From Candidatus Aeolococcus gillhamiae (GTDB lineage Bacteria > Chloroflexota > Dormibacteria > Aeolococcales > Aeolococcaceae), in NCBI GenBank assembly GCA_003244045.1, contig QHBU01000153.1, positions 67 through 64,066 of the forward strand: a DNA stretch of 64,000 nt. Reading direction: 5' to 3'. Each line of letters starts with the position of its first letter. The stretch's first letter is position 1. The translations under genes and the position numbers were made by a program. The notes under the pieces were generated by a model. The model had not been told where the DNA came from. It saw nothing but the letters and a program-made list of their open reading frames with translations, and searched no databases. This document shows, one piece after another, positions 2,396 through 18,206 of this stretch.

Positions 2396-2414
2396 GTCGG
2401 GAAGGGGAGATTCG
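2396..2414. repeat. attL: 19-bp direct repeat GTCGGGAAGGGGAGATTCG (copy of the tRNA-Pro 3' end)
   Basis: Identical to 18049-18067. Flanks diverge immediately on both sides (g/t upstream, c/a downstream). Confidence 0.8.
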
Positions 2415-2425
2415 CGTCAAACTCA

Positions 2426-2515
2426 CTCAGCGCGTCTCAGCGGTTCTCAGAGTGCCCTTGCGTACCAAGGATTTCGGCGTTTGGCCGTCTCAGCACGTCT
2501 CACCGTTTCTCCGAG
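2426..2515. repeat. two imperfect 27-bp direct repeats just inside attL
   Basis: R1 2426-2452 is ctcagcgcgtctcagcggttctcagag. R2 2489-2515 is ctcagcacgtctcaccgtttctccgag. They match at 23/27 positions with starts 63 bp apart. Confidence 0.5.
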
Positions 2516-2517
2516 CG

Positions 2518-2539
2518 TTGTCGTCAGCTACTGTCGTCA
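2518..2539 (+). promoter_or_regulatory. tandem pair of 9-mer CTGTCGTCA (putative arm-type recombinase/Xis site, left arm)
   Basis: ttgtcgtca at 2518-2526 (1 mismatch) and ctgtcgtca at 2531-2539 (exact), 13-bp period. The same motif pair occurs at 17974-17994 and, inverted, at 14084-14105. Confidence 0.5.
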
Positions 2540-2593
2540 GGCGAGTTCGCGGCCTTAGTGGGCGAGAGCCACGACAGCGAGCTACGCCTCGCC

Positions 2594-3682
2594 TCAATCC
2601 GACGCAGGAAGGCGCCAGCCAACCCGGGTCAGGCGCCCCCACGCCGAGTGAAGGTCGCGGCGGAAGCGCCATTTGCTCCGGGGGCCGTCGTCGTGGCTGC
2701 CATACCTGCCGCGCTTGCGGCCGGGGCCGGCGTTCCACTGCTTGCGCCAGTCTTCCCAGGGTGGCTTGCCATCGCCGTACCCGTGGTCGAGCGCGAACCG
2801 GGCGAGCGCCTGGGACTTGTCGTCTAGCGGACGGACGCGTACGCCGCTGTAGATCGTCGCCCTAGCGCGACCATAGGCGGCTGCAACGTCGGAAGGAGTG
2901 AACGCGGGGTCGACCTCTAACACCAGGCGGGTCGTCGTGTCGGTGATTTCACCTCGATGCAGTCCTCGAAGCTCGGGCTTCCATCGGAACACCCAAGGGA
3001 CCGGCGAGTCGCCGCCGCATACGAGCCAGCGCGTCGCATCCCACGGGCTCCAGCGGTAGCGATCGGCCAACTCTGCGGCCACCTTGGCGACTTCGCCGAG
3101 CAGGCTGCCAGCCGGGACCGCCACGACCCGAACCTCGTCGCCATCTCGATACCACAGCTCTGGGAGCGTCCCCAGGTGTGGGACGAGGGCGGTACGAACC
3201 GCGTCAGCATCGGCGTCTGCCGCGATGTTCAATGCTCGGTAGTAGCGGTCGATGATCCATGTCACCAGCGCCGCGGGTTCCGGCGTCCCGGCTACCTCAC
3301 GGGTGGCCTTCTCCCTACCAGCCTTCCTGAGTGCGGCCCGCCGGGATAAGCCGTCGATCTTCGCCCGGAGGTGACGAACTGACAGCTCCTGTTCGGCCAG
3401 TTGGGTATACACGCGGGCGAGCTGCCGGATTCGATCCTCCTGCCACCCCTTCGGCGCGCGTTCAACATGATCGATCGGCTGACGAGTGGTGCGGAAGACT
3501 CTGCGATGCTTTCTGACCGCTTCGGCGGCCCCCTTCGCGCCGCCCTCCTGCCACTCGATGTCATCCGTGTAGCTCTCGTCCTCCAACCAAGCCCACACGG
3601 CGTCGGTTATGGGGCCCCGTAGCTCCCGCTCTATCTCGGCGCGACAATCCGGCGACATAAGCCTATCGTAACCCGCCGGCAT
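2594..3682 (-). CDS. hypothetical element protein, divergent from the Xis-type gene (candidate regulator)
   Basis: Track ORF 2594..3913 trimmed to the in-frame ATG at 3682 (MPAGYDRLMSPD...). The longer form would fully overlap the HTH gene on the other strand. No family recognised. Confidence 0.6.
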   Translation of the reverse strand: MPAGYDRLMSPDCRAEIERELRGPITDAVWAWLEDESYTDDIEWQEGGAKGAAEAVRKHRRVFRTTRQPIDHVERAPKGWQEDRIRQLARVYTQLAEQELSVRHLRAKIDGLSRRAALRKAGREKATREVAGTPEPAALVTWIIDRYYRALNIAADADADAVRTALVPHLGTLPELWYRDGDEVRVVAVPAGSLLGEVAKVAAELADRYRWSPWDATRWLVCGGDSPVPWVFRWKPELRGLHRGEITDTTTRLVLEVDPAFTPSDVAAAYGRARATIYSGVRVRPLDDKSQALARFALDHGYGDGKPPWEDWRKQWNAGPGRKRGRYGSHDDGPRSKWRFRRDLHSAWGRLTRVGWRLPASD

Positions 3683-3694
3683 AGTCTCTGAGCC

Positions 3695-3907
3695 ATGGAG
3701 AGCACCACCGCACCCCGCAGCGCCACCGACACCCCACTTCGACTCCTCGTCCCTGTTGCTGAGGCGAAGCGCCTCCTCGGCGACATCTCGACCGCGACCT
3801 TCTACAGGCTTACGGGGTCGGGTCGCCTGCGTTCCGTCCGCGTAGGTGGGAGGCGCTTCGTCCGCCGTGGCGACCTCGACCGTTTCGTCGCCGATCTGGA
3901 CGAGTAG
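3695..3907 (+). CDS. excisionase-family / MerR-like helix-turn-helix DNA-binding protein
   Basis: LLVPVAEAKRLLGDISTATFYRLTGSGRLRSVRVGGRRFVRRGDLDRFV matches the HTH_17/Xis pattern (L..eAa.lLg.s..T.yrl...G.l....iG.r..i....l..f). Confidence 0.7.
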   Translation: MESTTAPRSATDTPLRLLVPVAEAKRLLGDISTATFYRLTGSGRLRSVRVGGRRFVRRGDLDRFVADLDE

Positions 3908-5386
3908 GTGCAAACACCCCCGGGCGATACCGCCACAATCGAGCGCGAGTACAGCGTCGGGCCCAACCTGCGCCTACGCGACGAAAGGGCACTCGAGCTT
4001 GCAGACCTGGCGCTCGCTGGATCGGCCGCACCAGTCTGCGACGTTGCCCGATTGCTGGGTGCGGTTCGTGCAGTCCTGCGGCGCTATCTCGTGCTGCCCG
4101 GAGACCACTTCTATGACGTGGTGACACTGTGGATCGCTCATGCTCACGCTGTCGCGGCCGCGGACACTTCACCGCGCCTGATCTTCAAAAGCCCCGAGAA
4201 GGAGTCGGGCAAGACCCGCTGCCTCGAGCTGCTCGAGTTGCTAGTCCCGGCGCCGCTGACAGTCGTTAGCGTCACCACGACCGCCATCTTCCGACTCCTC
4301 AAGCAGGAGCAATGCACGGTCCTCCTCGATGAGTGCGACGCCGTCTTCAGTCCCAAAGCCGGTAATTACGAAGACCTGCGCGCTCTGTTGAACGCCGGCT
4401 ACCGGCGTGGCGCCACTGTTGCCCGCGTTGTCGGTGACGGCAAGCGGATGCATGTCGACCGGTTTCCCGTCTTCGCAGCCACCGCGCTTGCCGCCATCGG
4501 TGATCTGCCAGACACCATCGAGTCGCGGTCGATCATCGTGCCCATGCGCCGCCGCGCACCCAGCGAGGCCGTCGAGAAGTTCCGGCACCGCCGCGTCGAC
4601 CTCGAACTCGCGGATCTGCGCGAGGGATTGGTTGAGTGGTCCGCAGCTCAGAGCGAATCGCTGGGCAACGCGAGGCCGTCGATGCCGGAAGCCCTCGAGG
4701 ACCGGGCCGAGGACTGCTGGGAGCCGCTGATCGCGATCGCTGATCTCGCCGGCGCGGAATGGGGTCGGCGAGCTCGCGAAGCAGCCGTGACGGTGGTCAA
4801 GGGTCGGGTAGCGGAGGATGCCAGCGTCGGCGTGCGCCTTCTCGCCGACCTCCGCGTGGTCATGGATGGGCACGACCGCATGCCCAGCGCCGCACTGTGT
4901 GCTGCGCTCAACGGTCTCGAGGAGTCCGGCTGGAGTGCGTGGAACGACGGCAAGGGCATCGGCCAGCGCGACCTGGCCAGGCGGCTGAAGCAGCACCGCA
5001 TCGCCTCGCACAACATCAAGCTATCGGACGGCACTGTGCCCAAGGGGTACTTGCGCACCGACTTCTCGGATGCATGGTGCCGCTACCTTCGGGATACCCC
5101 CGCTACCTCCGCTACCACCGCTACCCGGGTACGAGTTGACGTAGCGCCTGTAGCGCATGTAGCGGACACCACGGGAGAGGACTTCACCGTCATTGACGCG
5201 CTGTTCGCGCCAGACGAGGACCGTCCGCTGTCCGACGTCATCCACCGCCCGGCCTGTCCGCGATGCGGCAGCACTGCGGCGTCTATGCTGCGAGCCGGCG
5301 ATGCCGCCGCACTCTGCGCACGCTGCACGCCCGAGCCGCAGAGCCGGTGGCGAGGCCCCCGAGGCGGTCGCGTCATGACCGGATGA
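3908..5386 (+). CDS. DUF3631-like P-loop protein (replication/primase-associated protein of actinobacterial integrative elements)
   Basis: Walker-A-like SPEKESGKTRCLELLELL and Walker-B-like TVLLDECDAVF. The stretch ALLNAGYRRGATVARVVGDG...FPVFAATALAAIGDLPDTIESRSIIVPMRR is typical of DUF3631. C-terminal Zn-ribbon CPRCGS...CARC. GTG start abuts the stop of the HTH gene. Confidence 0.7.
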   Translation: MQTPPGDTATIEREYSVGPNLRLRDERALELADLALAGSAAPVCDVARLLGAVRAVLRRYLVLPGDHFYDVVTLWIAHAHAVAAADTSPRLIFKSPEKESGKTRCLELLELLVPAPLTVVSVTTTAIFRLLKQEQCTVLLDECDAVFSPKAGNYEDLRALLNAGYRRGATVARVVGDGKRMHVDRFPVFAATALAAIGDLPDTIESRSIIVPMRRRAPSEAVEKFRHRRVDLELADLREGLVEWSAAQSESLGNARPSMPEALEDRAEDCWEPLIAIADLAGAEWGRRAREAAVTVVKGRVAEDASVGVRLLADLRVVMDGHDRMPSAALCAALNGLEESGWSAWNDGKGIGQRDLARRLKQHRIASHNIKLSDGTVPKGYLRTDFSDAWCRYLRDTPATSATTATRVRVDVAPVAHVADTTGEDFTVIDALFAPDEDRPLSDVIHRPACPRCGSTAASMLRAGDAAALCARCTPEPQSRWRGPRGGRVMTG

Positions 5387-5555
5387 CCCCACGCACGTGC
5401 CGGAGAGCTGGTCAGGCTCACAGTTACCTAACCCGCTACAAACACACAGGCACGTGGTTGAGCCCGATGGCGCCGATGTATATCCCCGCGTGAGGACCGC
5501 TTCTGCCGCGCACTTTGCCGCCCCGCGCTCACACATTCACCGAGGAACACAGATC

Positions 5556-6017
5556 ATGCCAAGAATTGCCAAGTCCCGCGGCGGACCGCGAGGGCCCGTT
5601 CCGAAGCGATCCGACCAGAGGCTGGGTCACGGCAGTCCATCGCGGATGCAGACCGTCCGGGCTCCGGCGACCTCGCCGATCAAGGTTCTCGAGCCGGACC
5701 CCGCGTGGCACCCATTGATTCAGCGGTGGTTTCGCTCGTTGACCACCTCCGGTCAGCACGTCTTCTACGAGGATTCCGATTGGGCGCTCGCGGCAGTCAT
5801 GGCTGAGCGTGAGAGTAAGAACCTGCTCAGCCCCCGGCCGTCCGCCCAGGCGTCGGCCCTCTTTCTGTCGGTTCAGAGCGACCTTTTGACAAGCGAGGGT
5901 GCTCGACGGCGGCTGCGAATCGAGTTGCAGCGCGACCAGCCGGAGGAGCCGCCGAGCGTTGCGATCATGCGGAACTATCGGGCGCGTTTGGGGGGTGACC
6001 ATGCCGCTTCCGCGTGA
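5556..6017 (+). CDS. phage terminase small-subunit-like protein
   Basis: ATG 5556 with SD GAGGAA at 5542-5547. The N-terminal GPRGPVPKRSDQRLGH and later W.PL...WFRSL..SGQ...YEDSDWA pattern resemble actinophage TerS proteins. This recognition is from memory. Confidence 0.5.
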   Translation: MPRIAKSRGGPRGPVPKRSDQRLGHGSPSRMQTVRAPATSPIKVLEPDPAWHPLIQRWFRSLTTSGQHVFYEDSDWALAAVMAERESKNLLSPRPSAQASALFLSVQSDLLTSEGARRRLRIELQRDQPEEPPSVAIMRNYRARLGGDHAASA

Positions 6018-6306
6018 CCTCGATCTCACCCCTCACGGCGGCCTCGACTCAACCATCCGCGATCTCTTCGCGCAGCGCGCTTCCGAGATCGCAGCAGTGG
6101 ACGAGGAGGCGTTGCCCGACTTGATCGCCGCAGCCGGCGCGACACTTGCCAACGGAGACGAGGATAACCTAGCCAGAGTCGCTGCGGGCTTGCTTTGGAT
6201 GGCATTGCGACATCGTCAACTCGGAGCGAGCGATCTCGAGGTCCATGCCCTCCTTCGGCGTTGGGCCGACATCCTCGTTCAAGACACAGGAGGCGAAAGC
6301 GAATAG
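6001..6306 (+). CDS. hypothetical protein (101 aa)
   Basis: ATG 6001 overlaps the end of the TerS-like gene by 17 nt. Acidic, Ala/Leu-rich and coding-like. No family recognised. Confidence 0.45.
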   Translation: MPLPRDLDLTPHGGLDSTIRDLFAQRASEIAAVDEEALPDLIAAAGATLANGDEDNLARVAAGLLWMALRHRQLGASDLEVHALLRRWADILVQDTGGESE

Positions 6307-6309
6307 GCG

Positions 6310-6693
6310 TCAGGCGCGCACTGCTATTGCCTCGTCCGCGAGTCGAGCCAGAACGCTGAGCGCCGCTAGATGCTCCAAGGCTTCCTGCTCGCCCGGCTGC
6401 TCGTGGAAGTGTGTCGCAAGATTGTCGATGAACATCGTGCACCCGACGCCGAGATGCAGCGCCCCTCGTGTGCGCTTCTGCCAATCCTCCGTCTACTTGG
6501 TACTTGCCGAAGCGGAGGCGGGGCCGCCCAGGTCTCGGATCGTCGCTGCTGAATGCCGCCTGAATAGACGGCTTCCTGTTACGTCGTTCCTGCCAAGCCT
6601 CGCCCGAACGACGATGTCCAGTTGGGTGGCCGCGGCCTGTATGGCCTCGCGGCTGCCGGCTGCGTTCCACACTACCGGGTGAAGGCCCGTCAC
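6310..6693 (-). pseudogene. TIGR02391 (Hypoth_Ymh)-family gene interrupted by an in-frame TAG
   Basis: One frame reads MTGLHPVVWNAAGSREAIQAAATQLDIVVRARLG...STK, then TAG (6493-6495), then TEDWQKRTRGALHLGVGCTMFIDNLATHFHEQPGEQEALEHLAALSVLARLADEAIAVRA and a stop. The LHP start, A..A...L...VR, G..L and the (F)I.N..TH...EA.E.L...S.L.RL layout fit the family. Confidence 0.5.
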
Positions 6694-6768
6694 TGCGAGG
6701 GACGGGAGCGAGGAATTTCTCTACGAGGGTTGCGGAGGAGGGAAGAAATCCGGGCATCATTACGCCCG

Positions 6769-9700
6769 ATGACCACTCGGTATGACGTCAGCAAGGTCCC
6801 CCTCCAGGGCGGTTACGTCGCCAAGCAGTGCCCCGTGCGGGCTCAGAACGACGCGATCGTGCCGGGCGTGCGCCTGGCGCCGGACACATTCCAGCAACGG
6901 CTGATCGATCAGGGCGTTGCGTTCGAAACGGATGTGGTGGCGGAGCTCGTGGCCGCCCAACCGGCCGCCGTAATCATCGAAGGTGGCGGGGAGATTGCAG
7001 AGGTGGCGACCCTTGAGGCAATGCGCGCCGGGGCACCACTTATCGTGAATGCTCGGATGTCCGATCCGGCAGGGCGGAGGGTGGGCAAGCCCGATCTGCT
7101 AGTACAGGCCTCCGCCGGCTACGACGCAGTAGACATTAAGTGGCATCACGCGTTAGAGGTGGCGAAGCCTTCGGGTAAGGATCCTTCTGCGCTGGTCTCA
7201 GCTCTCTCAGCACCGACCCTCATGTTAGCCACGAATGACCCCGCTTTCGTTCCACGGAAACACGAGGGAGATCTGCTCCAGCTAGCCCACTACCGGCGGA
7301 TGCTGGAGACCGTCGGTATGGCGGCGCCCGGGGATCGCGTCGCTGGGATTATTGGTACGGAGCGGCGCGTCGTGTGGCACGACCTGGATGCAGCCATCTG
7401 GCGCACGCCGTCGCTTTCGGAGAAGCACAAACGCCGCAGCACCATGGAGCGATACGACTTCGAGTTCGACTTCCGGCTCGACATCATATCGGTGGCGCAT
7501 CAGCACCAGAACGACCCGTCGGTGGATCTACTAGTGGTGCCTGTGCGCTGCGGCGAGTGTCCGACTTGTCCATGGAATGACTACTGCCGACCAATACTCG
7601 AAACTCCGCCCGGAGATGTGAGTCTGCTCCCACGATTGGGCTGGACGCAGTGGAAGGCGCATCGCGAACGTGGCGTAACCAACCGTGCGGAATTGGCCGC
7701 GCTCGACATGCGAACCGCACAAATCGTCGCCGCCAAACTGGATGTAGCGGGACTAATAGCGACAGTTGCCGGCGTGAATCCTGCTACTCCGATTCTGGAG
7801 CTCGGTGCGAGCTGGTCTAAAGGTAAGCGGTTCGAACAGCTGCAACAACTTGGAATAGCAACAGTGGGCGACGCCCTCTCGTTGGATGCGTCAACTGCCC
7901 GATATTCAGACGCGCCTATTCCCTCGCTACCTGACCAGATCGACATGGCACGTGCCGCACTGGGACCCGAATCTGTGTACCGGCGACGTGGAACGGATGA
8001 GGTGATTGTGCCTCGCGCTGATATCGAGATCGATGTTGACATGGAAAGCACAGAGCTGGGTGTCTACATGTGGGGAACGTGGCTCTCATCGGGAACAAAC
8101 GTCGGGGACGCCTTGTTGCACGCGCTGCGTACGCGAGGAGCATCGATGGAACTAGTGGAAGGCTATCGGTCGTTCGCGACCTTTGATGAACTGACGCCAG
8201 AATCAGAGGCCAAGAATTCGCTGACGTTCTGGCAGTGGCTCCAGCGGATTCGTGAGTATTGCCACCAACAGGGCCTAACGGTCCGTGCGTTCTGCTGGAA
8301 TGAGTCCGCGGAGAACCAGTACCTGCGCAACATCGGTCTGGCCTGGGACGTTGCCGATGACGTTGAGGCCTTCATCACGTCTGGTGAGTGGGTCGACTTG
8401 CTCAGGGTCTGGGATGCGCAGCTGGTGACAGGCGGAGCGAGCGGTCTGAAGGTCGTGGCGCCGCTAATCGGCTTCCACTGGGACGTAGATGAGGCAGGTG
8501 GTGGGGAGTCCATGGTCGTGCATGACCGGGCCGTGAACGGGCCCGATGCAGCGAGTGCCCAGGAGTGGTTGCTGGCCTACAACCGTAGTGATGTGATGGC
8601 AACCCGAGGGGTCCGCGAGTGGATGACCAATACAGTCGTGCCCGCGGCCGAGGAGCTAGATCACGCCGCGGGAATTAGCTCCGCTCCTGGCGCCGCCACC
8701 GTCGCCCCTACAGTGTCCTCGGCCGTGGCGTCCCCAACTGGACCTGCGATCCAGCTACCCTCCCACCAGGTGGCCTCGCGGACTGCTTTCGGAGGAGCTA
8801 TGACCGCCGCTGAGTTCGCACGTAAGTGGATCGGGAGCACTCGTGGCGAACGCGCTGCATCACATGAGCATTTCATGAACTTGTGCAGCCTCCTTGGGCA
8901 ACCCACACCGAACTCTGACCAGACCGGTGATCGGTATGCCTTCGAAAAGGGTGCCGCGAAGGTCGAGGGAGGAGAGGGGTGGGCGGATGTTTGGAAGAAG
9001 GGTCATTTCGCATGGGAGTACAAAGGCAAGCACAAGGACTTGGAAGCCGCCTACCGGCAACTCCTCCTCTACCGTGAGGCGTTGGAGAATCCACCCCTCC
9101 TTGTCGTCTGCGACCTGGACAAGTTCGAGATCCACACCAACTTCACGAACACGGCTAAGGAGGTCCACAAGTTTTCACTCCAAGACTTCCTGGACGGGCC
9201 GGCGCGGCCCATGCGGCTCCTCAAGGCAGTTATGGAGGCACCGGACTCCCTCAAGCCGTCTGCGACTCGGGAAGAACTGACAGAAAAGGCAGCGGGACAT
9301 TTCGCAGAACTCGCGGTCGGCCTTCGCGGCAGAGGTTACGACGCCCAGCGTGTTGCTCACTTTCTCAACAAGCTGGTGTTCTGCATGTTTGCCGAGGACT
9401 CTGGTCTCCTTCCCGCCGGCCTGATCGCTCGGGTCACGAAGATCGGCGATTCGCTCTTCGCCGACCCGGCGGAAGTACGTGCCGCGATGGCCGAACTATT
9501 TTCCCGTATGTCCAGTCAGGGAGGCCGTTTCGGAGCGGAGCGTATTCAGTGGTTCAACGGCGGTCTTTTCGACGGCGACGATGCCCTTGAGCTGACATCC
9601 GGTGAGCTCGACGTCGTCTCGACGGTCGCTGCTCTGGACTGGTCGCAAATTGAGCCAGCAGTCCTTGGGACTCTCTTCGAACGCGGGCTTGACCCGGACA

Positions 9701-11583
9701 AGCGCAGCCAGATGGGCGCGCACTACACGGATCGCATCAGTATTGAGCGAGTCATTGCCCCGATGGTAATCGAACCACTAGAGAGAGAGTTTGCTCTTGC
9801 TCAGCGGGCGGCTCGGGAAGCACTCGGCGATATCTCTATCACGGGATCCCTCAGTGGTTCCGCGCTCGGCACCCGCACGAGAGCCATCCAGCGTGCTGAA
9901 TCGATCGTGACCAAATTCCTGAAACGGCTCGACGGCGTGCGTGTGCTTGACCCGGCATGTGGCTCGGGCAATTTTCTGTACGTCGCCCTCCAAGCGCTGA
10001 AGGATCTTGAGAGTCGGGTCATCCTTTGGGAGTCGATGGAGCTGGGGACCCCCATACGGTTCCCTGTCCTCGGCCCGCACAATCTTCTCGGAATAGAACT
10101 CAACCCGTATGCCGCCGAACTCGCAAGGGTCGCCATCTGGATCGGCGAAATCCAATGGATGCTGGGCAACGGTTTTGCCTATCTACGAAACCCGGTACTG
10201 CGCCCCCTCGACAACATTGAGTGTAGGGACGCCGTAGTCGCGTTCGATGGTGATGGCGCGCCCGGTGAACCCCGGTGGCCGCGGACGGATTTCATCATCG
10301 GTAACCCACCATTTCTCGGCATCCGCAAGATGCGTTCAGCGCTGGGTGATGCATATGTCGACGCCCTTTTCGAGGTCTACGCGGGCCGGGTCCCGCATTC
10401 CGCAGATCTGGTGTGCTACTGGCACGAGAAGGCTGGCGCGATGATTGCCGCAGGAGAATGCACGTACGCCGGATTGCTGGCTACCCAATCAATTCGCGCT
10501 GGCGCGAACCGGGTCGTCCTCGAGCGGATCAAGACCACGGGTGACATCTTCATGGCATGGGCCGACGAACCTTGGATCGTCGAGGGTGCCGCAGTGCGCG
10601 TGTCGATCATCGCCTACGACGACGGCAGAGAAGGTCAACGAACCCTCGATGGCAAGGCCGTCACAACAATCAACTCCGACCTAACGGCTGAGATTGATCT
10701 ATCACGAAGCCAGGCGCTTCCAGAGAATGGAATGATTGCCTTCCAAGGGCCCGTGAAGGTGGGCCCCTTCGAGATTCCGCACGTATTGGCACGGCAGCTT
10801 CTCGATTCGCCTAACCCGGATGGACGCAGCAACGTGGACGTTATCCGCCCCTGGATGAACGCTAAAGACATAACGGGTCGGCCCCGGGACATGTTTATCA
10901 TCGACTTCGGCGAACTATCCGAGGAGCACGCGTGCTTGTATGAGGCGCCGTTTGAGTACGTGCGTGAGCATGTGCGACCAGTGCGCGTGACTAATCGCCG
11001 CGCGCGAAGAGCTGAGCGGTGGTGGCAGCATGGTGAGACGGTTCCTGGATTGCGTGCAGCGATGGTCGGGCTCCAGCGATTCTTCGTCACTCCGCGCGTG
11101 ACGAAGCACCGCATATTTGCCTGGGTCGACGCGCGAACCCTTCCCGATACACGACTCATAGCATTCGCTCGACAGGACGACTACTTCTTTGGTGTTCTTC
11201 ACTCGCGTGTCCACCAGGTGTGGTCGTTGCGTACCGGTAGCCAGCACGGCGTGGGTGCAACCTTCACGTATACGCCCACTACGACATTCGAGACATTTCC
11301 ACTTCCTCACGGTACAAATGAGCAGACCCGAGCGATCGCCGAAGCCGCCCAGAGAGTGAACGCGCTCCGGGAAGGGTGGCTCAACCCGGCGAGTATGTCG
11401 GAGTCGGAATTGAGGATGCGCACGCTCACGAACCTCTACAACGCGATGCCGACCTGGCTCATGCAAGCACACGAACGCCTCGACCGGACAGTGCACGATG
11501 CATATGGGTGGTCGTATCCGCTGGATGATGGCGAGATTCTGGCTCGCCTCTGGTCACTGAACGTTGAGCGCTCGTCGGCATAA
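6769..11583 (+). CDS. 1604-aa fusion: TM0106/RecB-Cas4-like PD-(D/E)XK nuclease + DEDDy RNase-H-fold exonuclease + MmeI-family type IIL (IIG) restriction endonuclease/N6-adenine methyltransferase
   Basis: Track ORF 6622..11583 trimmed to ATG 6769 (MTTRYDVSKVPLQGGYVAKQCPVR). Nuclease 1: GKPDLLV...YDAVDIKWH plus Cys cluster CGECPTCPWNDYC. Exonuclease: IEIDVDMES, CWNESAENQYL, YNRSDV. MmeI-like part: ADVWKKGHFAWEYK (D-x9-E-x-K), LVFCMFAED, FNGGLFD, LDWSQIEPAVLGTLFE, MGAHYT, VLDPACGSGNFL, IIGNPPFLG. Confidence 0.85.
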   Translation: MTTRYDVSKVPLQGGYVAKQCPVRAQNDAIVPGVRLAPDTFQQRLIDQGVAFETDVVAELVAAQPAAVIIEGGGEIAEVATLEAMRAGAPLIVNARMSDPAGRRVGKPDLLVQASAGYDAVDIKWHHALEVAKPSGKDPSALVSALSAPTLMLATNDPAFVPRKHEGDLLQLAHYRRMLETVGMAAPGDRVAGIIGTERRVVWHDLDAAIWRTPSLSEKHKRRSTMERYDFEFDFRLDIISVAHQHQNDPSVDLLVVPVRCGECPTCPWNDYCRPILETPPGDVSLLPRLGWTQWKAHRERGVTNRAELAALDMRTAQIVAAKLDVAGLIATVAGVNPATPILELGASWSKGKRFEQLQQLGIATVGDALSLDASTARYSDAPIPSLPDQIDMARAALGPESVYRRRGTDEVIVPRADIEIDVDMESTELGVYMWGTWLSSGTNVGDALLHALRTRGASMELVEGYRSFATFDELTPESEAKNSLTFWQWLQRIREYCHQQGLTVRAFCWNESAENQYLRNIGLAWDVADDVEAFITSGEWVDLLRVWDAQLVTGGASGLKVVAPLIGFHWDVDEAGGGESMVVHDRAVNGPDAASAQEWLLAYNRSDVMATRGVREWMTNTVVPAAEELDHAAGISSAPGAATVAPTVSSAVASPTGPAIQLPSHQVASRTAFGGAMTAAEFARKWIGSTRGERAASHEHFMNLCSLLGQPTPNSDQTGDRYAFEKGAAKVEGGEGWADVWKKGHFAWEYKGKHKDLEAAYRQLLLYREALENPPLLVVCDLDKFEIHTNFTNTAKEVHKFSLQDFLDGPARPMRLLKAVMEAPDSLKPSATREELTEKAAGHFAELAVGLRGRGYDAQRVAHFLNKLVFCMFAEDSGLLPAGLIARVTKIGDSLFADPAEVRAAMAELFSRMSSQGGRFGAERIQWFNGGLFDGDDALELTSGELDVVSTVAALDWSQIEPAVLGTLFERGLDPDKRSQMGAHYTDRISIERVIAPMVIEPLEREFALAQRAAREALGDISITGSLSGSALGTRTRAIQRAESIVTKFLKRLDGVRVLDPACGSGNFLYVALQALKDLESRVILWESMELGTPIRFPVLGPHNLLGIELNPYAAELARVAIWIGEIQWMLGNGFAYLRNPVLRPLDNIECRDAVVAFDGDGAPGEPRWPRTDFIIGNPPFLGIRKMRSALGDAYVDALFEVYAGRVPHSADLVCYWHEKAGAMIAAGECTYAGLLATQSIRAGANRVVLERIKTTGDIFMAWADEPWIVEGAAVRVSIIAYDDGREGQRTLDGKAVTTINSDLTAEIDLSRSQALPENGMIAFQGPVKVGPFEIPHVLARQLLDSPNPDGRSNVDVIRPWMNAKDITGRPRDMFIIDFGELSEEHACLYEAPFEYVREHVRPVRVTNRRARRAERWWQHGETVPGLRAAMVGLQRFFVTPRVTKHRIFAWVDARTLPDTRLIAFARQDDYFFGVLHSRVHQVWSLRTGSQHGVGATFTYTPTTTFETFPLPHGTNEQTRAIAEAAQRVNALREGWLNPASMSESELRMRTLTNLYNAMPTWLMQAHERLDRTVHDAYGWSYPLDDGEILARLWSLNVERSSA

Positions 11584-12809: not shown

Positions 12810-13253
12810 TCATGTCTGCGGAGGAAGTGCCGCAGTCGCCGGCGGCGGCTGTCCCTCAACGAACCGAAAGGGGACGCTCTTCAGATGCTGGCCATCGACG
12901 CTGACTTCAAAGCTGTAACGCCCCGCGGCGGGAATCGGCAAACCATGTAGCCCAACGGACAATTGGGCCGGGACTTCCCAGTTGGGAGGATGGCCCTCAG
13001 GCACGGTTCCAGGCCCAAGGTCGACCTGTAAGGGCGGCGCGAAATCGGCGCCATCCTCATCCCAAAAGCGGACCTCAAGCCTGTGCTGAGCAGCGACTTC
13101 GGTCCGGTGGACCATGACCCGGAGGGTTAGCGCACCGATGAACGTGGTGGGGAAGGATGGCCGCCAACTGGTGTCCCATCCGCCGCCCAGCACGTAGCTC
13201 AACCCCGCCTGAATCTCGCTCGAATTTGAGAGGATCGCCCAGTCGAGTCTCAT
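12810..13253 (-). CDS. hypothetical protein translationally coupled to mazF (147 aa)
   Basis: Track ORF 12810..13361 trimmed to ATG 13253 (MRLDWAILSNSSEIQAGLSYVLGGGWD...). The ATG overlaps the mazF TGA in an ATGA at 13250-13253. Looks beta-rich. No family confidently recognised. Confidence 0.6.
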   Translation of the reverse strand: MRLDWAILSNSSEIQAGLSYVLGGGWDTSWRPSFPTTFIGALTLRVMVHRTEVAAQHRLEVRFWDEDGADFAPPLQVDLGPGTVPEGHPPNWEVPAQLSVGLHGLPIPAAGRYSFEVSVDGQHLKSVPFRFVEGQPPPATAALPPQT

Positions 13254-13606
13254 TCGGCTTCCGGCGACGGGAGATCCAGGAATTGGGCCAAAGCCTCTTC
13301 GATCTCCCTCCTCAGGACGGGGTCCTCCACGCGCCCGCGCCTCCGGACGATCCGATCGCAATCGATGGTTCGAATCTGTTGGATGAGGATGACACCGCGG
13401 TGAACTATGCCCGGGAGATCAGGAAGCGCGACCTCGGATGGGTATTTCGGCGGCTCCCGTGAGGTTATTGCGACCACCGTCGCCATTCCCGCCCGCCGAT
13501 TGAAACCATCATTGGAAACCACGATGGCCGGTCGCGTTTTGCCCTGCTCATGCCCACGCGGGACGCCGTAGTCCACATCCACGACGTCCCAGCGACGACC
13601 GTCCAA
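13250..13606 (-). CDS. mazF: MazF/PemK-family type II toxin (endoribonuclease)
   Basis: WDVVDVDYGVPRGHEQGKTRPAIVVSND...VVAITS...EVALP...GVILIQQIRTIDCDRI matches the PemK/MazF signature. TTG start. Confidence 0.8.
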   Translation of the reverse strand: MDGRRWDVVDVDYGVPRGHEQGKTRPAIVVSNDGFNRRAGMATVVAITSREPPKYPSEVALPDLPGIVHRGVILIQQIRTIDCDRIVRRRGRVEDPVLRREIEEALAQFLDLPSPEAE

Positions 13607-13611
13607 GGAGC

Positions 13612-13806
13612 CTATTCGTCCTGAAGGACAGCCTCGGCGTCAGCGGCCTCGGCCAGTTGCAGGAGCTCGGCCTGCTCCGCACGCCACGCCCGATCGGTCT
13701 CGACGGCCGCCCAAGGGTCCACGCCGTCAGCCCGATTTTCGCCTGTTTGGACGCGTTCCGGCGCGCCGGTCGCCGAAAAGCTGAAGTGAATAGTTCCTGT
13801 CGTCAT
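13612..13806 (-). CDS. putative cognate antitoxin (64 aa)
   Basis: Small acidic ORF ending 5 nt upstream of mazF. Assigned by position only. Confidence 0.55.
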   Translation of the reverse strand: MTTGTIHFSFSATGAPERVQTGENRADGVDPWAAVETDRAWRAEQAELLQLAEAADAEAVLQDE

Positions 13807-14082
13807 TTGTTGCGTGTTCCTCCGGCTCTTCCAAGATTAGTGCTGGAGTGCCTGCCGCCGACTCCCCCGTGACAAGTCTGATGCAATTGCCACCCTCCCG
13901 AGTTCCTTGGCGGGAACTGTACGCCCCGCATCGCATCACTAGCCGTGGTTCCAGTCGGCGCCTGGGCGGGGGGCGCAGCACTCACCTCCCGAGCAAAGAA
14001 CTGTGTCTTCAAGGCAGGCGGGAATATCACCTTCCCGACCAAATGGCATCAGCCCTATTCGATTGTCGGCTTCGCCGACCGA

Positions 14083-14111
14083 TTGACGACAGCTGTTGAC
14101 GACAGTAGACT
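14083..14111 (+). promoter_or_regulatory. near-consensus sigma-70-type promoter upstream of int, overlapped by a tandem TTGACGACAG repeat
   Basis: TTGACG (14083-14088), a 17-nt spacer, then TAGACT (14106-14111), about 95 nt upstream of the int ATG. TTGACGACAG occurs at 14083-14092 and 14096-14105 and is the reverse complement of the arm 9-mer. Confidence 0.4.
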
Positions 14112-14205
14112 GCTCATGAGACGGCATGAGCCACCCAGGGAGGCCGGCGTTGCGGGCACCAGTCCAGCCCGTGATCGGACACCCTGACCAAGAGGGCACT
14201 CGACA

Positions 14206-15402
14206 ATGGCCAGGCGTACTGCCAGCCCTGGACGCCGCACCCGCGCCAATGGCGAGGGCACCGTCAGTCGGCGGCAGGACGGCCGCTGGGAGGCCCGCGT
14301 CTTCGTCCGCCAGGATGGCCGCTGGGTCCGACGCGCTCTCTACGCGAAGACCAAAGCCGAGGCCAGCCGCAAGCTGCGCGAGGCGATCACGGCCCGCGAC
14401 AAGGGGCTCCCGATGCCCAAGGGCTCAACGACCGTTGCCGCCTTTCTGGAGGAGGAGTGGTGGCCCGGGGTCGCGCCGTCGCTCCGGCCGGGGTCGCAGC
14501 GTCGCTATCACCAGGTGGTCACCGACTACCTCGTACCCGCTTTGGGTAGGCGTCGCTTGGTCGACCTCCAGCCCGAGCACCTTCAAACCCTCTACGGACG
14601 GCTGCTAGCCGAGGGCAAATCGCCTGCCACGGTTCGCCTCGCTCACGCCGTCCTCCACCGGGCGCTGAGCCGCGCGCTGTCCTGGGGCAAGGTTGTCCGC
14701 AACGTGGCTGACGCTTCCATGGTCGATTTGCCCCGGAGTCCGCGCCGCGAAGCGGCCCACTTCGACGCCCAGGCAGCTCGGCTCGTCGTCGGTGCTGCTC
14801 AAGGGGACCGACTGGAGGCGCTGTGGGCGCTCGCCCTCACCGCTGGCCTGCGCCGTGGCGAGCTGCTCGCCCTCCGATGGGATGCCGTCGATCTTGACCG
14901 CGGGGTCGTCGAAGTCCGCTACACGCTCCAGCCCGACGGAAGCCTCGCCGAGCCGAAATCCGCGAGCTCGCGCCGGGCTGTCCCAATAGCCGATGCCGTC
15001 ATTTCCGTCCTCCGCTCTCACATGAGCAGCCAAGCCGCCGAGCGGCTTGAGGCGGGGAACCAATGGCAGGAACCTCGCCTCTCTGTAGCCGGTAGCAAGG
15101 TGACCCTCGACGGCGGACTCGTCTTCACTACCCCTCTAGGCCGGCCGCTTCCGATCACCTCGATGGTGAAAGCGTGGGTCGCCGTGCTCGGGCGGGCCGG
15201 GGTGCCCATCATCCCCTTCCACGGCACCCGCCATACCGCCGCATCCCTGCTCGCCGACGCTGGGGTTCACCCCACAGTGGCTCAGGCCCGGCTCGGACAC
15301 GCGACGTCGGCGATGACGCTTGAGCGATACACCCACGTCGGCGAGGCTCAGCGGCGAGGGGCGGCTGACGACGTCGAGCGGTTGCTCGGGCTGAGCAGCT
15401 AG
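14206..15402 (+). CDS. int: tyrosine recombinase / phage-type integrase
   Basis: N-terminal GEGTVSRRQDGRWEARVFV (arm-binding/AP2-like motif). Catalytic LTAGLRRGELLALRW (Arg), HGTRHTAAS (H-x-x-R) and LGHATSAMTLERYTHV (His...Tyr). Confidence 0.9.
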   Translation: MARRTASPGRRTRANGEGTVSRRQDGRWEARVFVRQDGRWVRRALYAKTKAEASRKLREAITARDKGLPMPKGSTTVAAFLEEEWWPGVAPSLRPGSQRRYHQVVTDYLVPALGRRRLVDLQPEHLQTLYGRLLAEGKSPATVRLAHAVLHRALSRALSWGKVVRNVADASMVDLPRSPRREAAHFDAQAARLVVGAAQGDRLEALWALALTAGLRRGELLALRWDAVDLDRGVVEVRYTLQPDGSLAEPKSASSRRAVPIADAVISVLRSHMSSQAAERLEAGNQWQEPRLSVAGSKVTLDGGLVFTTPLGRPLPITSMVKAWVAVLGRAGVPIIPFHGTRHTAASLLADAGVHPTVAQARLGHATSAMTLERYTHVGEAQRRGAADDVERLLGLSS

Positions 15403-15404
15403 CA

Positions 15405-15725
15405 GTGTGCAGCCGGCTAATCGCCATCGCCCTACTCATTGCCGGGATCAGCGGCATGTGGCAAGTGAGCCCTGCCCTCGGGGTGGTCGGCATCTTGGGT
15501 CTCCTCCTAGTCCTCGCGGCTCGCGGTCGTCTCCAGTGGCAGCGCGCCGAGGCTGACGCCCAGCGGATGCGCGCCGGCACCCCAACTCCCTGGGTCAAGA
15601 CCTACCGTCGGGCGAGGGAGTACGCACAGGACCGCCGAGCGGATGACCGCATTCGACGGCCGCGCTCAGGCGAACGTCACTACGGGCTTCGCAGCAACAG
15701 GATCGTAATCACGTGGGATCGGTGA
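15405..15725 (+). CDS. small membrane protein (2 TM)
   Basis: GTG start 3 nt after the int stop. Hydrophobic LIAIALLIAGISGMW and ALGVVGILGLLLVLAA segments. Confidence 0.5.
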   Translation: MCSRLIAIALLIAGISGMWQVSPALGVVGILGLLLVLAARGRLQWQRAEADAQRMRAGTPTPWVKTYRRAREYAQDRRADDRIRRPRSGERHYGLRSNRIVITWDR

Positions 15726-15735
15726 TCCGGTGGCG

Positions 15736-15749
15736 GAGCCGATCGGCTC
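15736..15749. terminator. GC-rich palindrome between convergent genes (weak bidirectional terminator candidate)
   Basis: GAGCCGATCGGCTC is a perfect 14-nt palindrome (5-bp stem, 4-nt loop). No U-tract. Confidence 0.25.
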
Positions 15750-15777
15750 TAGCGTCGCCTCGGGTCCATCCAGTTGA

Positions 15778-16551
15778 CTAGGCGAAGAATCCGGTCACGC
15801 CAACAAGAAATGTCGGGCACGCGGCCCCGTACAAGGACACAGTAAAGGTGAGATTCCCGCCCGGTGCAACGCCATTATTCTGATCGGCAAACCCCCCGGA
15901 CGTGTTGACGATTGCCCCGGTCGCATCGAAGCAGTAGACGTTCACGTTGTACGGACCCTGCAATGCAGCTCGTGTCGCGTTTGTTGCCGTGCCCACGATG
16001 CTACCTCCTAACAGCTTCGCTTCCGTCACCTTCGCCGTCGCTGTGTTGTACGAAGACGTGTCGGCCGGGACGGTCTCGGAGGTAAAGGCGTACACCGCGG
16101 TGTCAGGAATCTGCGCCGCCGTTCCGATCTGGAAGTAGATAAAGGAGAGAGCGGCCTCCCCGGGAGCCAACTGCGATGGGTCGGTCTCTTGACTCTGACC
16201 AGTCGCGCGGAGGGTTCCGGTGGCGTCGCGAGCCGTCGCTGTCACGTCGATGTGGGAAACGGCATGCGCCGTGTTGTTCCTCAGAACGATTGGAATGTCC
16301 GCGGCGCCACTCGGATCCCGAAGGAGCTTCCCGACATATACAGCGTCGATTTTGCCCGGGTGTCCGGCGGGAAAATTGGGCTTTGCAGTTCCGGCGAGCA
16401 GAGCACCTGGGTTGAATGTCGAAGGCGCGCTCGCGCTGCTTGAAGACGTCACCGGACTACCTCCGGTTGCAGTCATAGTGCTCCCGCCGCAGGCGCTTAG
16501 TGCCAACACAGCCCCGGCGGCGGCAGGCCCGACCAGCTGGCGCAGTCTCAT
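15778..16551 (-). CDS. lipoprotein of unknown function
   Basis: Signal peptide with lipobox AVLALSAC-GGS, a Ser/Thr-rich linker, then a beta-rich domain. Confidence 0.7.
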   Translation of the reverse strand: MRLRQLVGPAAAGAVLALSACGGSTMTATGGSPVTSSSSASAPSTFNPGALLAGTAKPNFPAGHPGKIDAVYVGKLLRDPSGAADIPIVLRNNTAHAVSHIDVTATARDATGTLRATGQSQETDPSQLAPGEAALSFIYFQIGTAAQIPDTAVYAFTSETVPADTSSYNTATAKVTEAKLLGGSIVGTATNATRAALQGPYNVNVYCFDATGAIVNTSGGFADQNNGVAPGGNLTFTVSLYGAACPTFLVGVTGFFA

Positions 16552-16602
16552 TAATCGGGAGATAGTAGGACTCCTTCGGCGGTTCCGCTCAGCCTCCGAC
16601 CG

Positions 16603-16740
16603 CTAGTCGATGAGCCGTGCCTTCAGCCGGGCGAACTCCTCCTCGGACAACGCACCCGCCTGACGCAGCGCGACTAGATTACCAACCTCATCGGCAAAGA
16701 TGAGCGGGGTGCGGCTGCGTCGTCTGAGCCCAAACGTGCT
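16603..16740 (-). pseudogene. orphan SHOCT-domain C-terminal fragment
   Basis: The frame reads ...PLIFADEVGNLVALRQAGALSEEEFARLKARLID then stop, a SHOCT-like motif. There is no ATG/GTG/TTG between it and the upstream in-frame TGA (16741-16743). Upstream sequence to ~16960 switches frames. Confidence 0.35.
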
Positions 16741-17054
16741 TCAGGAAGAACGTCATCCACCCCAATTGCATCCACAGGCCCTGACGCCCGTGCCAAGATC
16801 GCCCAATGCGTGGCGGCTCCAGGGTATTTGCCCTGGGCCCACACTCAACCGATGGCCGGTCAGATGCGCATCACTCATCCTGCGCGGTCGTCGATCCGCC
16901 TGGATGACGTGGTCGCGAACCAATGAGATACCACAGCGACTTCACCCGGAGCTGCGCCTCCGCGGCTGGCTCATTGTGGAAGTTGGCTGGCAAGTTGATC
17001 GGCCGTCAGCCACCGCCGAGGACGCTGGGCCAGAAGGTCCAAGGGTGCGGTTGC

Positions 17055-17516
17055 ATGATGATCTTCCCCGTGTTCTCTTTGACGTTGTGGCTGCTCAAGT
17101 GGATGGTGATGGCTATGGCGGCGCTAGCACTGATAACGGCAGCGACGGGCTGCAGCCTAGCGGCTGGGGTCGGGCTGATCGTGGATCTTTTCCCCAGCCA
17201 GGCCAAGAAAGCCTGGAGTCCACCACAACCACGGATTCCACCGCCGCCCGGCCGTTCGGTTGCTTCCAAGGTGGCGCCCCAGGCGGCTCCTGACGTAGTA
17301 AGTGACCCACCGCCCGTCGCAGCTGGCCCCCCTGTTGCATACAGACTTGAATGGGCAGTGAAGAATGCACTTGCGGCCCAGGTGATAGCTGGCCAAAAGC
17401 ATTACCGCGTCAACTGCCTCCACTGCGGACAGTTGCTTGAGGTTCCGACAGGGAATATCCGCTGCCCGCTGTGCCGCAAGCGGAACAGGGTCAAGGCACC
17501 GCCTGAGTCAGGTTAG
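17055..17516 (+). CDS. membrane-anchored zinc-ribbon protein
   Basis: Track ORF 16923..17516 trimmed to ATG 17055 (MMIFPVFSLTLWLLKWMVMAMAALALITAATG). Pro-rich linker. C-terminal CLHCGQLLEVPTGNIRCPLCRKRN. Confidence 0.5.
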   Translation: MMIFPVFSLTLWLLKWMVMAMAALALITAATGCSLAAGVGLIVDLFPSQAKKAWSPPQPRIPPPPGRSVASKVAPQAAPDVVSDPPPVAAGPPVAYRLEWAVKNALAAQVIAGQKHYRVNCLHCGQLLEVPTGNIRCPLCRKRNRVKAPPESG

Positions 17517-17537
17517 CCCGAGCAACCGCTCGACATC

Positions 17538-17795
17538 TTGAGCCGCGCGTTCGGCGTGTTCGAGCTAGCCGCGAAGGGTTCTGGAAGCCACGCAACTGTC
17601 GTCATCCGAACAAACGGCGAGGCGGCGGAGACGGGCTGCTTCACAATCCGAGACCTCTCCGCGGCTGAGGTCCGGGCGAAACTTGCCGGGTGGTTGCGCG
17701 GTCGAGACATTCCTTGGTACGAGGACCAAGAGGGTGAGGGCCCGGCTAACGCCACCTCTGCGACACGCTCTCCGCCGGCGTGGGCGACTAGTTGA
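17538..17795 (+). CDS. hypothetical protein (85 aa)
   Basis: TTG-start ORF with coding-like composition. No family recognised. Confidence 0.35.
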   Translation: MSRAFGVFELAAKGSGSHATVVIRTNGEAAETGCFTIRDLSAAEVRAKLAGWLRGRDIPWYEDQEGEGPANATSATRSPPAWATS

Positions 17796-17973
17796 CATTC
17801 GACCTCCCGAATCGCCCTTGCGGTGCTGCGCCTTCGAGAACAGCAGCCTGCGGCTGGCCGGCGACGGTTTCAGTGGCGAGCTGGTGCTGGACGGCTCGGT
17901 GCGGCCGGTCTGCCTGAGTGCTCGGCCGGCGTAGGAAAGTCAACACACTGCTCAAGTCGGGATCGAGGGCCTA

Positions 17974-17994
17974 CTGTCGTCGGTGCTGTCGTCA
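17974..17994 (+). promoter_or_regulatory. tandem pair of 9-mer CTGTCGTCA (putative arm-type site, right arm)
   Basis: ctgtcgtcg at 17974-17982 (1 mismatch) and ctgtcgtca at 17986-17994 (exact), 12-bp period, 55-75 bp from attR. Confidence 0.5.
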
Positions 17995-18048
17995 TTCGGC
18001 CCATTCTCGTCAGAAATCCCTTGTGTTATAAGGGTTCTCTAAAGACAT

Positions 18049-18067
18049 GTCGGGAAGGGGAGATTCG
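18049..18067. repeat. attR: 19-bp direct repeat GTCGGGAAGGGGAGATTCG within the tRNA-Pro 3' end
   Basis: Identical to 2396-2414. Covers the discriminator base, the 3' acceptor strand, the 3' T-stem and part of the T-loop. Confidence 0.8.
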
Positions 18068-18124
18068 AACTCCCGACCTCACGGTCCCGAACCGTGCACT
18101 CTAACCTGGCTGAGCTACTTCCCG
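18050..18124 (-). tRNA. tRNA-Pro (anticodon CGG)
   Basis: Hand-folded cloverleaf. Acceptor CGGGAAG/CTTCCCG (C1-G72). D arm GCTC-AGCCAGGTTA-GAGT. Anticodon arm CACGG-TTCGGGA-CCGTG. Variable loop AGGTC. T arm GGGAG-TTCGAAT-CTCCC. Discriminator A. 75 nt, CCA not encoded. Confidence 0.9.
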
Positions 18125-18206
18125 AGGCGCCGGAGTGTACCACCGCCCTCTCCGGCGCTCTTCGGCCGCAGACCTACAATGTCCAGTCCATGCAGGGACA
18201 ACAGTC

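Follow-up and report, generated by a model that had tools for sequence, protein, structure and literature searches.

The DNA analyzed here is a 64,000-nucleotide stretch of contig QHBU01000153.1 from Candidatus Aeolococcus gillhamiae (the whole stretch is referred to below as the window). Between positions 2396 and 18067 it contains an element that ends in the 3′ part of a tRNA-Pro(CGG) gene and carries genes for a tyrosine integrase, an excisionase-type helix-turn-helix (HTH) protein, a RepAM (DUF3631) replication initiator and a small terminase subunit (TerS), followed by what appears to be defence cargo (Table 1). Judging from this anatomy and from comparisons with related loci, we consider the chances about even that the element is a phage-satellite candidate, similar to phage-inducible chromosomal islands (PICIs), which resides with its defence cargo in a Candidatus Dormibacterota chromosome.

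Since the window is 68% GC, raw lists of open reading frames (ORFs) are noisy, and profile searches with Pfam, PHROGs, NCBIfam and PADLOC, applied to 17 ORFs, were relied on instead. A first-pass annotation, made by reading the sequence without database searches, had recognized an integrase, an Xis-type HTH protein, a DUF3631 protein and a small-terminase-like protein, together with defence-type genes, and had seen neither virion nor conjugation genes. All four core calls are backed by Pfam, and int, xis, repAM and terS are full-length with family-invariant residues. The same searches returned no match to capsid, portal, large terminase (TerL), tail, lysis, FtsK or relaxase families among the 17 ORFs, the hypothetical ones included, and left seven further ORFs without any family match. 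[quoted passage not shown] The missing virion and conjugation genes are thus confirmed, as is the defence-type cargo, which includes an MmeI-type restriction enzyme (Pfam, PADLOC) and a MazF/PemK toxin (Pfam).

The conserved protein encoded divergently from xis, ORF362, had no match in Pfam, PHROGs, NCBIfam, PADLOC, or in phage or plasmid databases. Its family comprises 431 representative clusters (50% identity level, E ≤ 1e-3). A confident AlphaFold2 model (pLDDT 86.8) gave no fold match in PDB or BFVD, and the idea that ORF362 is a cryptic capsid, portal or Tra protein was rejected on the grounds of the missing family and fold matches. By analogy, its location may be said to correspond to that of a satellite master regulator.

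Table 1. Features of the element and of its ends, with positions counted from the first nucleotide of the window.
Feature	Position	Strand	Remarks
attL core	2396..2414	-	Distal copy of the tRNA-Pro 3′ end; together with 2393-2395 gives ...CCCGACCAA (ancestral end, bearing CCA)
Putative arm-type integrase-binding repeat (T)GACGACAGTAG, P arm	2528..2539	-	Second, imperfect copy adjoining
ORF362, conserved protein	2594..3682	-	Divergent from xis, 12 bp between start codons
Xis/AlpA-like excisionase-regulator (HTH_17)	3695..3907	+	Pfam E=1.7e-8; PHROG 66; TIGR01764 just under cutoff
RepAM (DUF3631) replication initiator	3908..5386	+	Pfam E=1e-54; P-loop SPEKESGKTR; all family-invariant residues present
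Small terminase, Terminase_7 (PF25673)	5556..6017	+	Pfam E=1.5e-32; ORF opens at 5397, likely start ATG 5556
TerS partner ORF	6001..6306	+	101 aa, predicted helical; start overlaps terS end
TM0106 RecB-like nuclease/RNase H-like region fused to MmeI-type Type IIG restriction-modification enzyme	6622..11583	+	Cargo; 1653 aa
DUF6941 protein	12810..13253	-	Cargo; Pfam E=2.5e-17, for ORF 12810-13361
MazF/PemK toxin	13250..13606	-	Cargo; Pfam E=1.9e-23; NCBIfam MazF
Putative antitoxin	13612..13806	-	Assigned by its position immediately upstream of mazF; no family match
Third att-like core	14021..14042	+	Inverted relative to attL/attR; 3 of 22 nt mismatched; 164 bp upstream of int
Putative arm-type repeat pair TGACGACAGctgtTGACGACAGTAG	14084..14108	+	Between inner att-like core and int
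Tyrosine integrase	14206..15402	+	Pfam Phage_integrase and SAM_3; PHROG 1 E=4.5e-65; R...HxxR...H...Y motifs readable in translation
Accessory block	15405..17516		Lies between the int 3′ end and its 32-nt inverted copy
Small transmembrane protein	15405..15725	+	
FxLYD-domain lipoprotein	15778..16551	-	PHROGs / NCBIfam
Membrane/zinc-ribbon ORF	16923..17516	+	
Putative arm-type repeats TGACGACAGcaccGACGACAGTAG, P′ arm	17971..17994	-	Beside attR
tRNA-Pro(CGG)	18049..18124	-	3′ 19 nt (18049-18067) = attR core

The tRNA-Pro(CGG) locus and the ends of the element

The perfect 19-bp direct repeat GTCGGGAAGGGGAGATTCG occurs exactly twice in the window, at 2396–2414 and 18049–18067, and dinucleotide shuffles of the window contained no match to it even when two mismatches were allowed. 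Since ARAGORN and Rfam agree in placing tRNA-Pro(CGG) on the minus strand at 18049/18050–18124, the right-hand copy is the 3′ end of this tRNA, in accordance with the first-pass annotation. The tRNA was the sole noncoding RNA detected. From attL to the base preceding attR the element measures 15,653 bp. It thus has a tRNA 3′-end direct repeat at both ends and a cognate tyrosine integrase inside, both of which are expected of a tRNA-integrated island.

The two junctions differ in what adjoins the core. At attL the ancestral ...CCCGACCA end is retained, and the tRNA at attR ends instead in ...CCCGACATG; that is, attL reads ...CCCGAC-CAA (an encoded CCA plus trailer, as in L206 and L208, two of the relatives described below) and attR reads ...CCCGAC-ATG. 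This distribution supports true integration, since it is what one would expect of an element that brought its own replacement 3′ end and displaced the original one to the far junction. The resident tRNA-Pro would then carry an element-derived 3′ end.

The 11-mer GACGACAGTAG has only three copies in the 64 kb, each located 42–113 bp from one of three att cores and mostly paired with a second, TGACGACAG-like copy. We infer that these repeats are putative arm-type integrase sites. The third att-like core is the degenerate inverted site upstream of int, for which zero matches of this quality were expected by chance. No notable tandem repeats or iterons were found. Just inside attL, at 2426–2512, there is a cluster of short CTGAGAC/CGTCTCAG-type repeats (TRF period 10), which may be binding sites for accessory proteins (Xis or a host factor).

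The first-pass annotation had assumed a setting in high-GC Actinomycetota, which does not hold. The acyltransferase encoded beside the tRNA (18204–19214) has named homologues at 66–81% identity, all of them in metagenome-assembled genomes (MAGs) of Candidatus Dormibacteraeota/Dormibacteria, and homologues from Actinomycetota (Solirubrobacteraceae, Thermoleophilaceae) reach only ~49–55%. Among species-representative genomes, the closest RepAM genes (69–71% identity) also come from Dormibacterota MAGs. The host therefore belongs to Candidatus Dormibacterota (listed by NCBI as a separate phylum, Candidatus Dormiibacterota).

Four related contigs share the tRNA-Pro(CGG) and the acyltransferase with the window, at nucleotide identities of 95% (L205), 85% (L206 and L207) and 82% (L208). 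The element is absent from all four, and their homology to the window starts precisely where the tRNA has its 3′ end (18048/18049) and extends rightward for kilobases. The left flank (1–2395) gave zero matches to any of the four by blastn or tblastx and zero family matches; the contig, 64,617 bp long, ends no more than ~0.6 kb past the window, and the left flank is within ~3 kb of that end. The comparison with relatives that had been suggested as a search for an empty site thus succeeded by half: the right junction is exact in four element-free relatives, but the left flank is shared by none of them. The relatives differ from one another in the genes left of the tRNA, and because this 3′ side varies in every Dormibacterota relative, the tRNA-Pro site looks like a recurrent integration hotspot. 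At this place L205 has genes for GGDEF and FAD-oxidase proteins, L206 one for a methyltransferase and L208 one for an FG-GAP protein (the region set against window position 18049 is 9700–9925 in each of the three); the L205 tRNA is without an encoded CCA.

The integrase gene is off the canonical end position, being internal and 2.6 kb away from attR. Downstream of it, a 32-nt inverted repeat (15361–15392 and 17515–17546, 91% complementary), one arm of which is the int 3′ end, may be the scar of an inversion or duplication, and the 4 kb next to int seem to have been inverted or rearranged. It could be argued, then, that the locus is a composite or tandem array at a tRNA-Pro hotspot, in which an int-less xis-repAM-terS-cargo segment (2396–14020) adjoins an inverted 4-kb int segment (14021–18048) and the two do not make up one mobile or evolutionary unit. 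The inverted third core with its own arm-repeat pair beside int, the inverted duplication of the int 3′ end, the tRNA-Pro 3′ side that differs in every relative and the unmatched left flank would all agree with such an array. We nevertheless regard it as very improbable. The outer cores, perfect and in direct orientation, are each accompanied by arm repeats of matching orientation, which still makes the outer att pair the best substrate; the inner core is degenerate (3/22 mismatches), and the integrase is single, with neither a second integrase nor an int pseudogene found in the element. Besides, a composite origin is compatible with a satellite and does not exclude it.

The small terminase and its partner ORF

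The first-pass call of a small-terminase-like gene proved sound. Homologues of the Terminase_7 protein were detected by tblastn in 1154 actinophage records, among them 893 of Mycobacterium, 177 of Streptomyces, 45 of Rhodococcus and 29 of Gordonia phages, with the best identities (43–48%) to Streptomyces phages. The phage genes lie at the genome end and are annotated in GenBank as terminase small subunit, in Attoomi beside the large subunit. In IMG/VR, 72 of 80 Terminase_7 genes are followed immediately by an ORF of at least 380 aa, and 7 of the other 8 have a match to the TerL HMM slightly further downstream, so that Terminase_7 precedes TerL in 79 of 80 viral contigs. The gene order HNH, TerS, TerL is also seen in the metagenomic contig L166, whose TerS is 56% identical to that of the window. 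Homology to another contig, L165, starts at the ATG of MPRIAKS, which makes 5556 the likely TerS start. An exact look-up found no identical copy of the window TerS product on record, and no solved structural relatives of TerS_7 or RepAM were found. We know of no role of Terminase_7 other than in packaging.

The label "minor tail protein", attached to Terminase_7 by PHROG 226 and in some RefSeq entries, was considered and rejected as a misannotation, the same genes being annotated in GenBank as terminase small subunit and standing beside TerL. A separate observation concerns two metagenomic contigs, L003 (2300–15200) and L004, which have in common a ~13-kb element with Dam, DUF3987, Terminase_7, TerL and serine recombinase genes and no recognizable capsid or portal gene; this is another unusual small element with packaging genes.

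In the window, terS is followed by a small ORF instead of TerL. A TerS gene followed by a partner ORF of ~95–100 aa, without TerL, is present in the window and in L290, L001 and L167, that is, in four independent loci with different replication modules, and in these TerL-less loci the small ORF overlaps the terS stop codon. L290 encodes a TerS 61% identical to that of the window, followed by a 99-aa ORF that is 35% identical over 72 aa to the product of the 6001–6306 ORF (E=5e-8); the motif LRHRQLG is common to both partner ORFs. L001 contains int, HTH, DUF3987 and TerS genes, a 94-aa ORF and three more genes, and is bounded by a perfect 19-nt direct repeat (3383–3401 and 15082–15100, 11.7 kb apart); since its left copy is located within a DUF5679 gene, at the 3′ end, this island targets a protein-coding gene, not a tRNA. 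L167 contains int, HTH, a RepAM gene (64% identity of the product to that of the window), RusA, TerS, a 92-aa ORF and further genes. The small ORFs of L001 and L167 are homologous (E=3e-8), and the L290 ORF matches their profile (E=0.003). No match to the partner ORF was found in the phage database or IMG/VR, and its single-sequence AlphaFold2 model is of low confidence (pLDDT 59). The dN/dS ratio of TerS is 0.19–0.23; the value of 0.19 was obtained for the window versus L290, and TerS is therefore under purifying selection between two TerL-less copies.

A broader proposition, which we put forward tentatively and consider rather doubtful, is that these loci represent an undescribed satellite lineage common to Dormibacterota and Actinomycetota, in which a Terminase_7 TerS and a dedicated ~95–100-aa partner are combined with interchangeable replication backbones (RepAM in the window and L167, DUF3987 in L001). 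The partner might then be a packaging redirector or an interference factor analogous to Ppi or Rpp. In that case no satellites would have been proposed before these for a candidate phylum without a cultured phage-host system, and modules would have been exchanged between conjugative-element and satellite lifestyles.

RepAM and the relation to known mobile elements

The DUF3631 protein is RepAM, which initiates replication in the AICE pMEA300, and AICEs have been reported only in Actinomycetales (PMC3218068). With the HMM of ten AICE Tra proteins, a TraB/FtsK-like gene was found nearby in 56 of 80 genome RepAM loci; the Streptomyces-type loci have the order rep-xis-int, versus xis-rep in the window. 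Tra is absent from the Dormibacterota-clade RepAM loci L005, L008, L167 and L085. TerL is present in 12 of 37 IMG/VR RepAM loci, including L200, where Terminase_7 and TerL occur together, and sequenced phages have RepAM in just 2 of 50,697 records, both from Pseudomonas. In L008 (8200–16600, a Dormibacterota MAG), an int fragment and a RepAM gene, 69% identical and apparently frameshifted into two ORFs, are followed by genes for HNH, TerL, a 513-aa capsid-family protein and an S78 prohead protease, which makes it a phiRv-like mini element. From these contexts, RepAM is a module common to conjugative elements and small phage-like or satellite-like elements, and we place the window element in the latter group.

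The main rival of a satellite is a small phage-like element of the phiRv1/L008 type in a state of decay, which would have lost TerL, capsid and protease on insertion of the cargo, so that TerS is a leftover and the element is immobile or only excisable. L008 has the expected genes directly downstream of RepAM, and TerL occurs in the 12 IMG/VR RepAM loci mentioned above. The GC content falls to 58–61% right after the partner ORF, where L001 and L167 have other conserved genes; TerS remnants do exist in chromosomal contexts (L165, L289), and the int region is rearranged. We think this origin unlikely all the same, as decay sits poorly with full-length int, xis, repAM and terS genes that keep their invariant residues and with perfect att cores. 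L008 itself is without Terminase_7, and its TerL is distant from those that accompany Terminase_7 (E=2.8e-48, versus 1e-140 or better for Terminase_7-adjacent TerLs). The recurrence of TerL-less TerS with a partner in four independent loci suggests a maintained architecture rather than repeated identical decay, and the dN/dS of 0.19 between two TerL-less copies points the same way.

One may also suppose an origin with no link to phages: an AICE-derived integrative, mobilizable or defence island that has lost Tra and in which Terminase_7 serves as a DNA-binding regulator or partition factor. RepAM is, after all, the AICE initiator (PMC3218068), most of the genome RepAM loci have a Tra-like gene and the rep-xis-int order, RepAM is nearly absent from sequenced phages, and defence or accessory cargo makes up about half of the element. 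We judge this improbable in view of the absence of Tra-like sequence from the six frames of the window and from all four Dormibacterota-clade RepAM loci, and of the close tie of Terminase_7, whose only role known to us is in packaging, to TerL in viral contigs. The restriction of reported AICEs to Actinomycetales is a further point against it (PMC3218068).

Of the components by which AICEs are defined (PMC3218068), an integrase and a Rep (RepSA, RepAM or Prim-Pol; here DUF3631) are present in the window element and an FtsK/SpoIIIE-type Tra is not. Like pMEA300-type AICEs, it is tRNA-integrated and has a tyrosine integrase, Xis and RepAM/DUF3631 (PMC3218068); unlike them, it has no FtsK/SpoIIIE Tra, has the order xis-rep rather than rep-xis-int, carries a phage TerS at the position of the transfer gene and resides in a host outside Actinomycetales.

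The published core of PICIs consists of int, a regulator, a replication module and terS, with no structural or lysis genes (de Sousa et al. 2023, PMC10085698). An integrase and a small terminase with phage synteny to TerL are present in the window element, and the "forbidden" tail, holin, capsid, portal and TerL genes are absent. As to a regulator homologous to AlpA, MerR or Stl, there is the HTH_17 protein of excisionase-regulator type, and ORF362 occupies the Stl position; a Stl- or cI-like repressor was not found in the element. The primase-replicase is not of the Pri-Rep, Prim-Pol or DUF3987 type, and RepAM could be a functional analogue only of the PICI replication module. With the TerS-encoding, pac-type PICIs of Gram-positive bacteria, including Staphylococcus aureus pathogenicity islands (SaPIs), the element shares a tyrosine integrase at a specific att site, the order of a divergent regulator position, xis/HTH, replication initiator and terS, the lack of TerL, capsid and lysis genes, accessory or defence cargo, and a size of ~15 kb, by our estimate roughly one third of the 42–51-kb genomes of phages with related TerS. 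No sequence homology to PICI core genes was found, and the element differs further in having RepAM in place of Pri-Rep, an actinophage Terminase_7 as TerS, no identified master repressor of Stl, AlpA or MerR type, an internal rather than terminal int and a host in Dormibacterota.

The elements phiRv1 and phiRv2 and other PICI-like elements of Mycobacterium are likewise small, integrated and phage-like and reside in high-GC, monoderm-type genomes; they are candidate satellites whose mobilization has not been demonstrated (PMC10085698, PMC10654092). Their architecture, with TerL, capsid and protease, is that of L008, a relative of the window RepAM. Elements of phiRv type are defined by a capsid gene (PMC10654092), but the window element is without capsid, protease and TerL. 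None of the genes that mark capsid-forming PICIs, phiRv elements or small prophages (major capsid, prohead protease, portal, TerL) was detected in it, and no viral fold matched its largest unknown protein. Capsid-forming PICIs and the Streptomyces satellites MulchRoom and MiniFlayer resemble it in their soil bacterial hosts and in dependence on a helper siphovirus, which for the window element is a proposal. They encode, however, everything needed for capsid and packaging (TerS, TerL, portal, capsid, HNH), and MulchRoom and MiniFlayer are without replicases; the window element, with replication and TerS only, is their opposite. Small actinobacterial elements have already been suspected of being satellites (PMC10023795). 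The PICI-like concept is thus not new, phiRv1 and phiRv2 of Mycobacterium having been described and being likewise unproven; what is new is the host phylum, the combination of RepAM with Terminase_7 and the recurrent TerL-less cassette of TerS and partner.

Proposed life cycle and cargo

If the element is a satellite, its cycle can be outlined as follows. Int and the Xis-type HTH protein would recombine the two 19-bp cores, guided by the GACGACAGTAG arm repeats, and release a 15,653-bp circle, restoring tRNA-Pro. The predicted attP junction is ...GAGTGAGTTTGACG + core + ATGTCTTTAGAG... (in the tRNA sense, ...GCTGAGTGAGTTTGACG-CGAATCTCCCCTTCCCGAC-ATGTCTTTAGAGAACCC...), and in the predicted attB the tRNA 3′ end is followed by CAACCTCGAGG.... 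RepAM would replicate the circle. As the element is without TerL and capsid, its TerS must act via a helper: probably together with the ~100-aa partner, it would recognize a packaging site in the element's DNA and enlist a helper siphovirus whose Terminase_7/TerL motor is related, using its large terminase and its procapsids, and the element would leave the cell in helper-made particles. We speculate that concatemers are packaged by a headful mechanism, with which a length of 3 × 15.65 kb = 47 kb, inside the 42–51-kb range of the related-TerS phages, would fit. The cargo (RecB-like nuclease/Type IIG fusion, MazEF, DUF6941 and envelope proteins) would compensate the host for carriage, with the restriction fusion, MazEF and DUF6941 acting in defence or addiction.

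The view, already expressed in the first-pass annotation, that replication and packaging-specificity genes without a virion follow the logic of satellites gains from the tie of phage Terminase_7 to TerL (79/80), the window being among the few TerL-less copies with a partner in small islands; it loses from the position of int off the canonical end and from the rearranged region next to it. Several observations weigh against a satellite more generally. No clean empty site was found among the four relatives, and since the left flank matches none of them and lies near the contig end, it is the repeat by itself that defines the left boundary. The internal int faces a degenerate, inverted att-like site, an inverted copy of its 3′ end brackets 2.1 kb, and these rearrangements could have immobilized the element. 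Terminase_7 was found in 0 of 160 other RepAM loci among the genome and metagenome matches listed, and its combination with RepAM is therefore rare; relatives with 60–68% RepAM identity lie outside the 160 listed loci, and of these only L167, which was reached individually and carries Terminase_7, is informative. The window partner ORF has no significant direct similarity to those of L001 and L167, so its family link runs via L290 only. L001 and L167 share at least two more genes after the partner; these are missing in the window, where the low-GC restriction cargo starts, and L290 is too short to show what follows the TerS-partner pair. In L165 and L289, isolated and partly broken TerS copies stand among chromosomal genes, from which it follows that TerS modules decay. 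A recognizable repressor or derepression module was not found in the element, and ORF362 occurs in none of the 288 related loci that were fetched. Finally, we know of no helper phage, and the steps of excision, replication and packaging are deduced from sequence.

Candidatus Dormibacterota is an abundant, uncultured soil phylum. Proteobacteria and Firmicutes are, to our knowledge, the only groups whose satellites are well charted; in high-GC soil lineages satellites are no more than suspected, and none is known for this phylum. If the element is indeed a satellite, its signature (Terminase_7 without TerL, a small partner ORF, and int and a replication initiator nearby) is simple and searchable and would bring to light, in soil metagenomes, a hidden class of hitch-hiking elements along with the defence cargo they carry. 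It would also mean that RepAM, a replication module of AICEs, serves phage-parasitic elements as well and that the helper pool consists of siphoviruses with Terminase_7/TerL. If it is not, the locus is just another island in decay at a tRNA hotspot.

The largest cargo gene encodes 1653 aa. Its product contains all five MmeI domains and RNase_H_2 (Pfam), as well as TIGR03491; residues 727–1649 match REase_MTase_IIG of PADLOC (E=4e-266), and the N-terminal third (about aa 50–700) is a TM0106 RecB-like nuclease with an RNase H-like part, in frame. The ORF could be a true fusion, or two genes joined after the loss of a stop codon; the restriction part starts at an internal Met (..GGAMTAAEFARKW..). 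The ~1.2 kb between the restriction and DUF6941 genes (11584–12809) contains ORFs without a family match and with a weak coding signal and may be a non-coding or degraded stretch within the element. The cargo has a GC content of 58–61%, versus 65–69% for the core, and its lower GC suggests a later acquisition.

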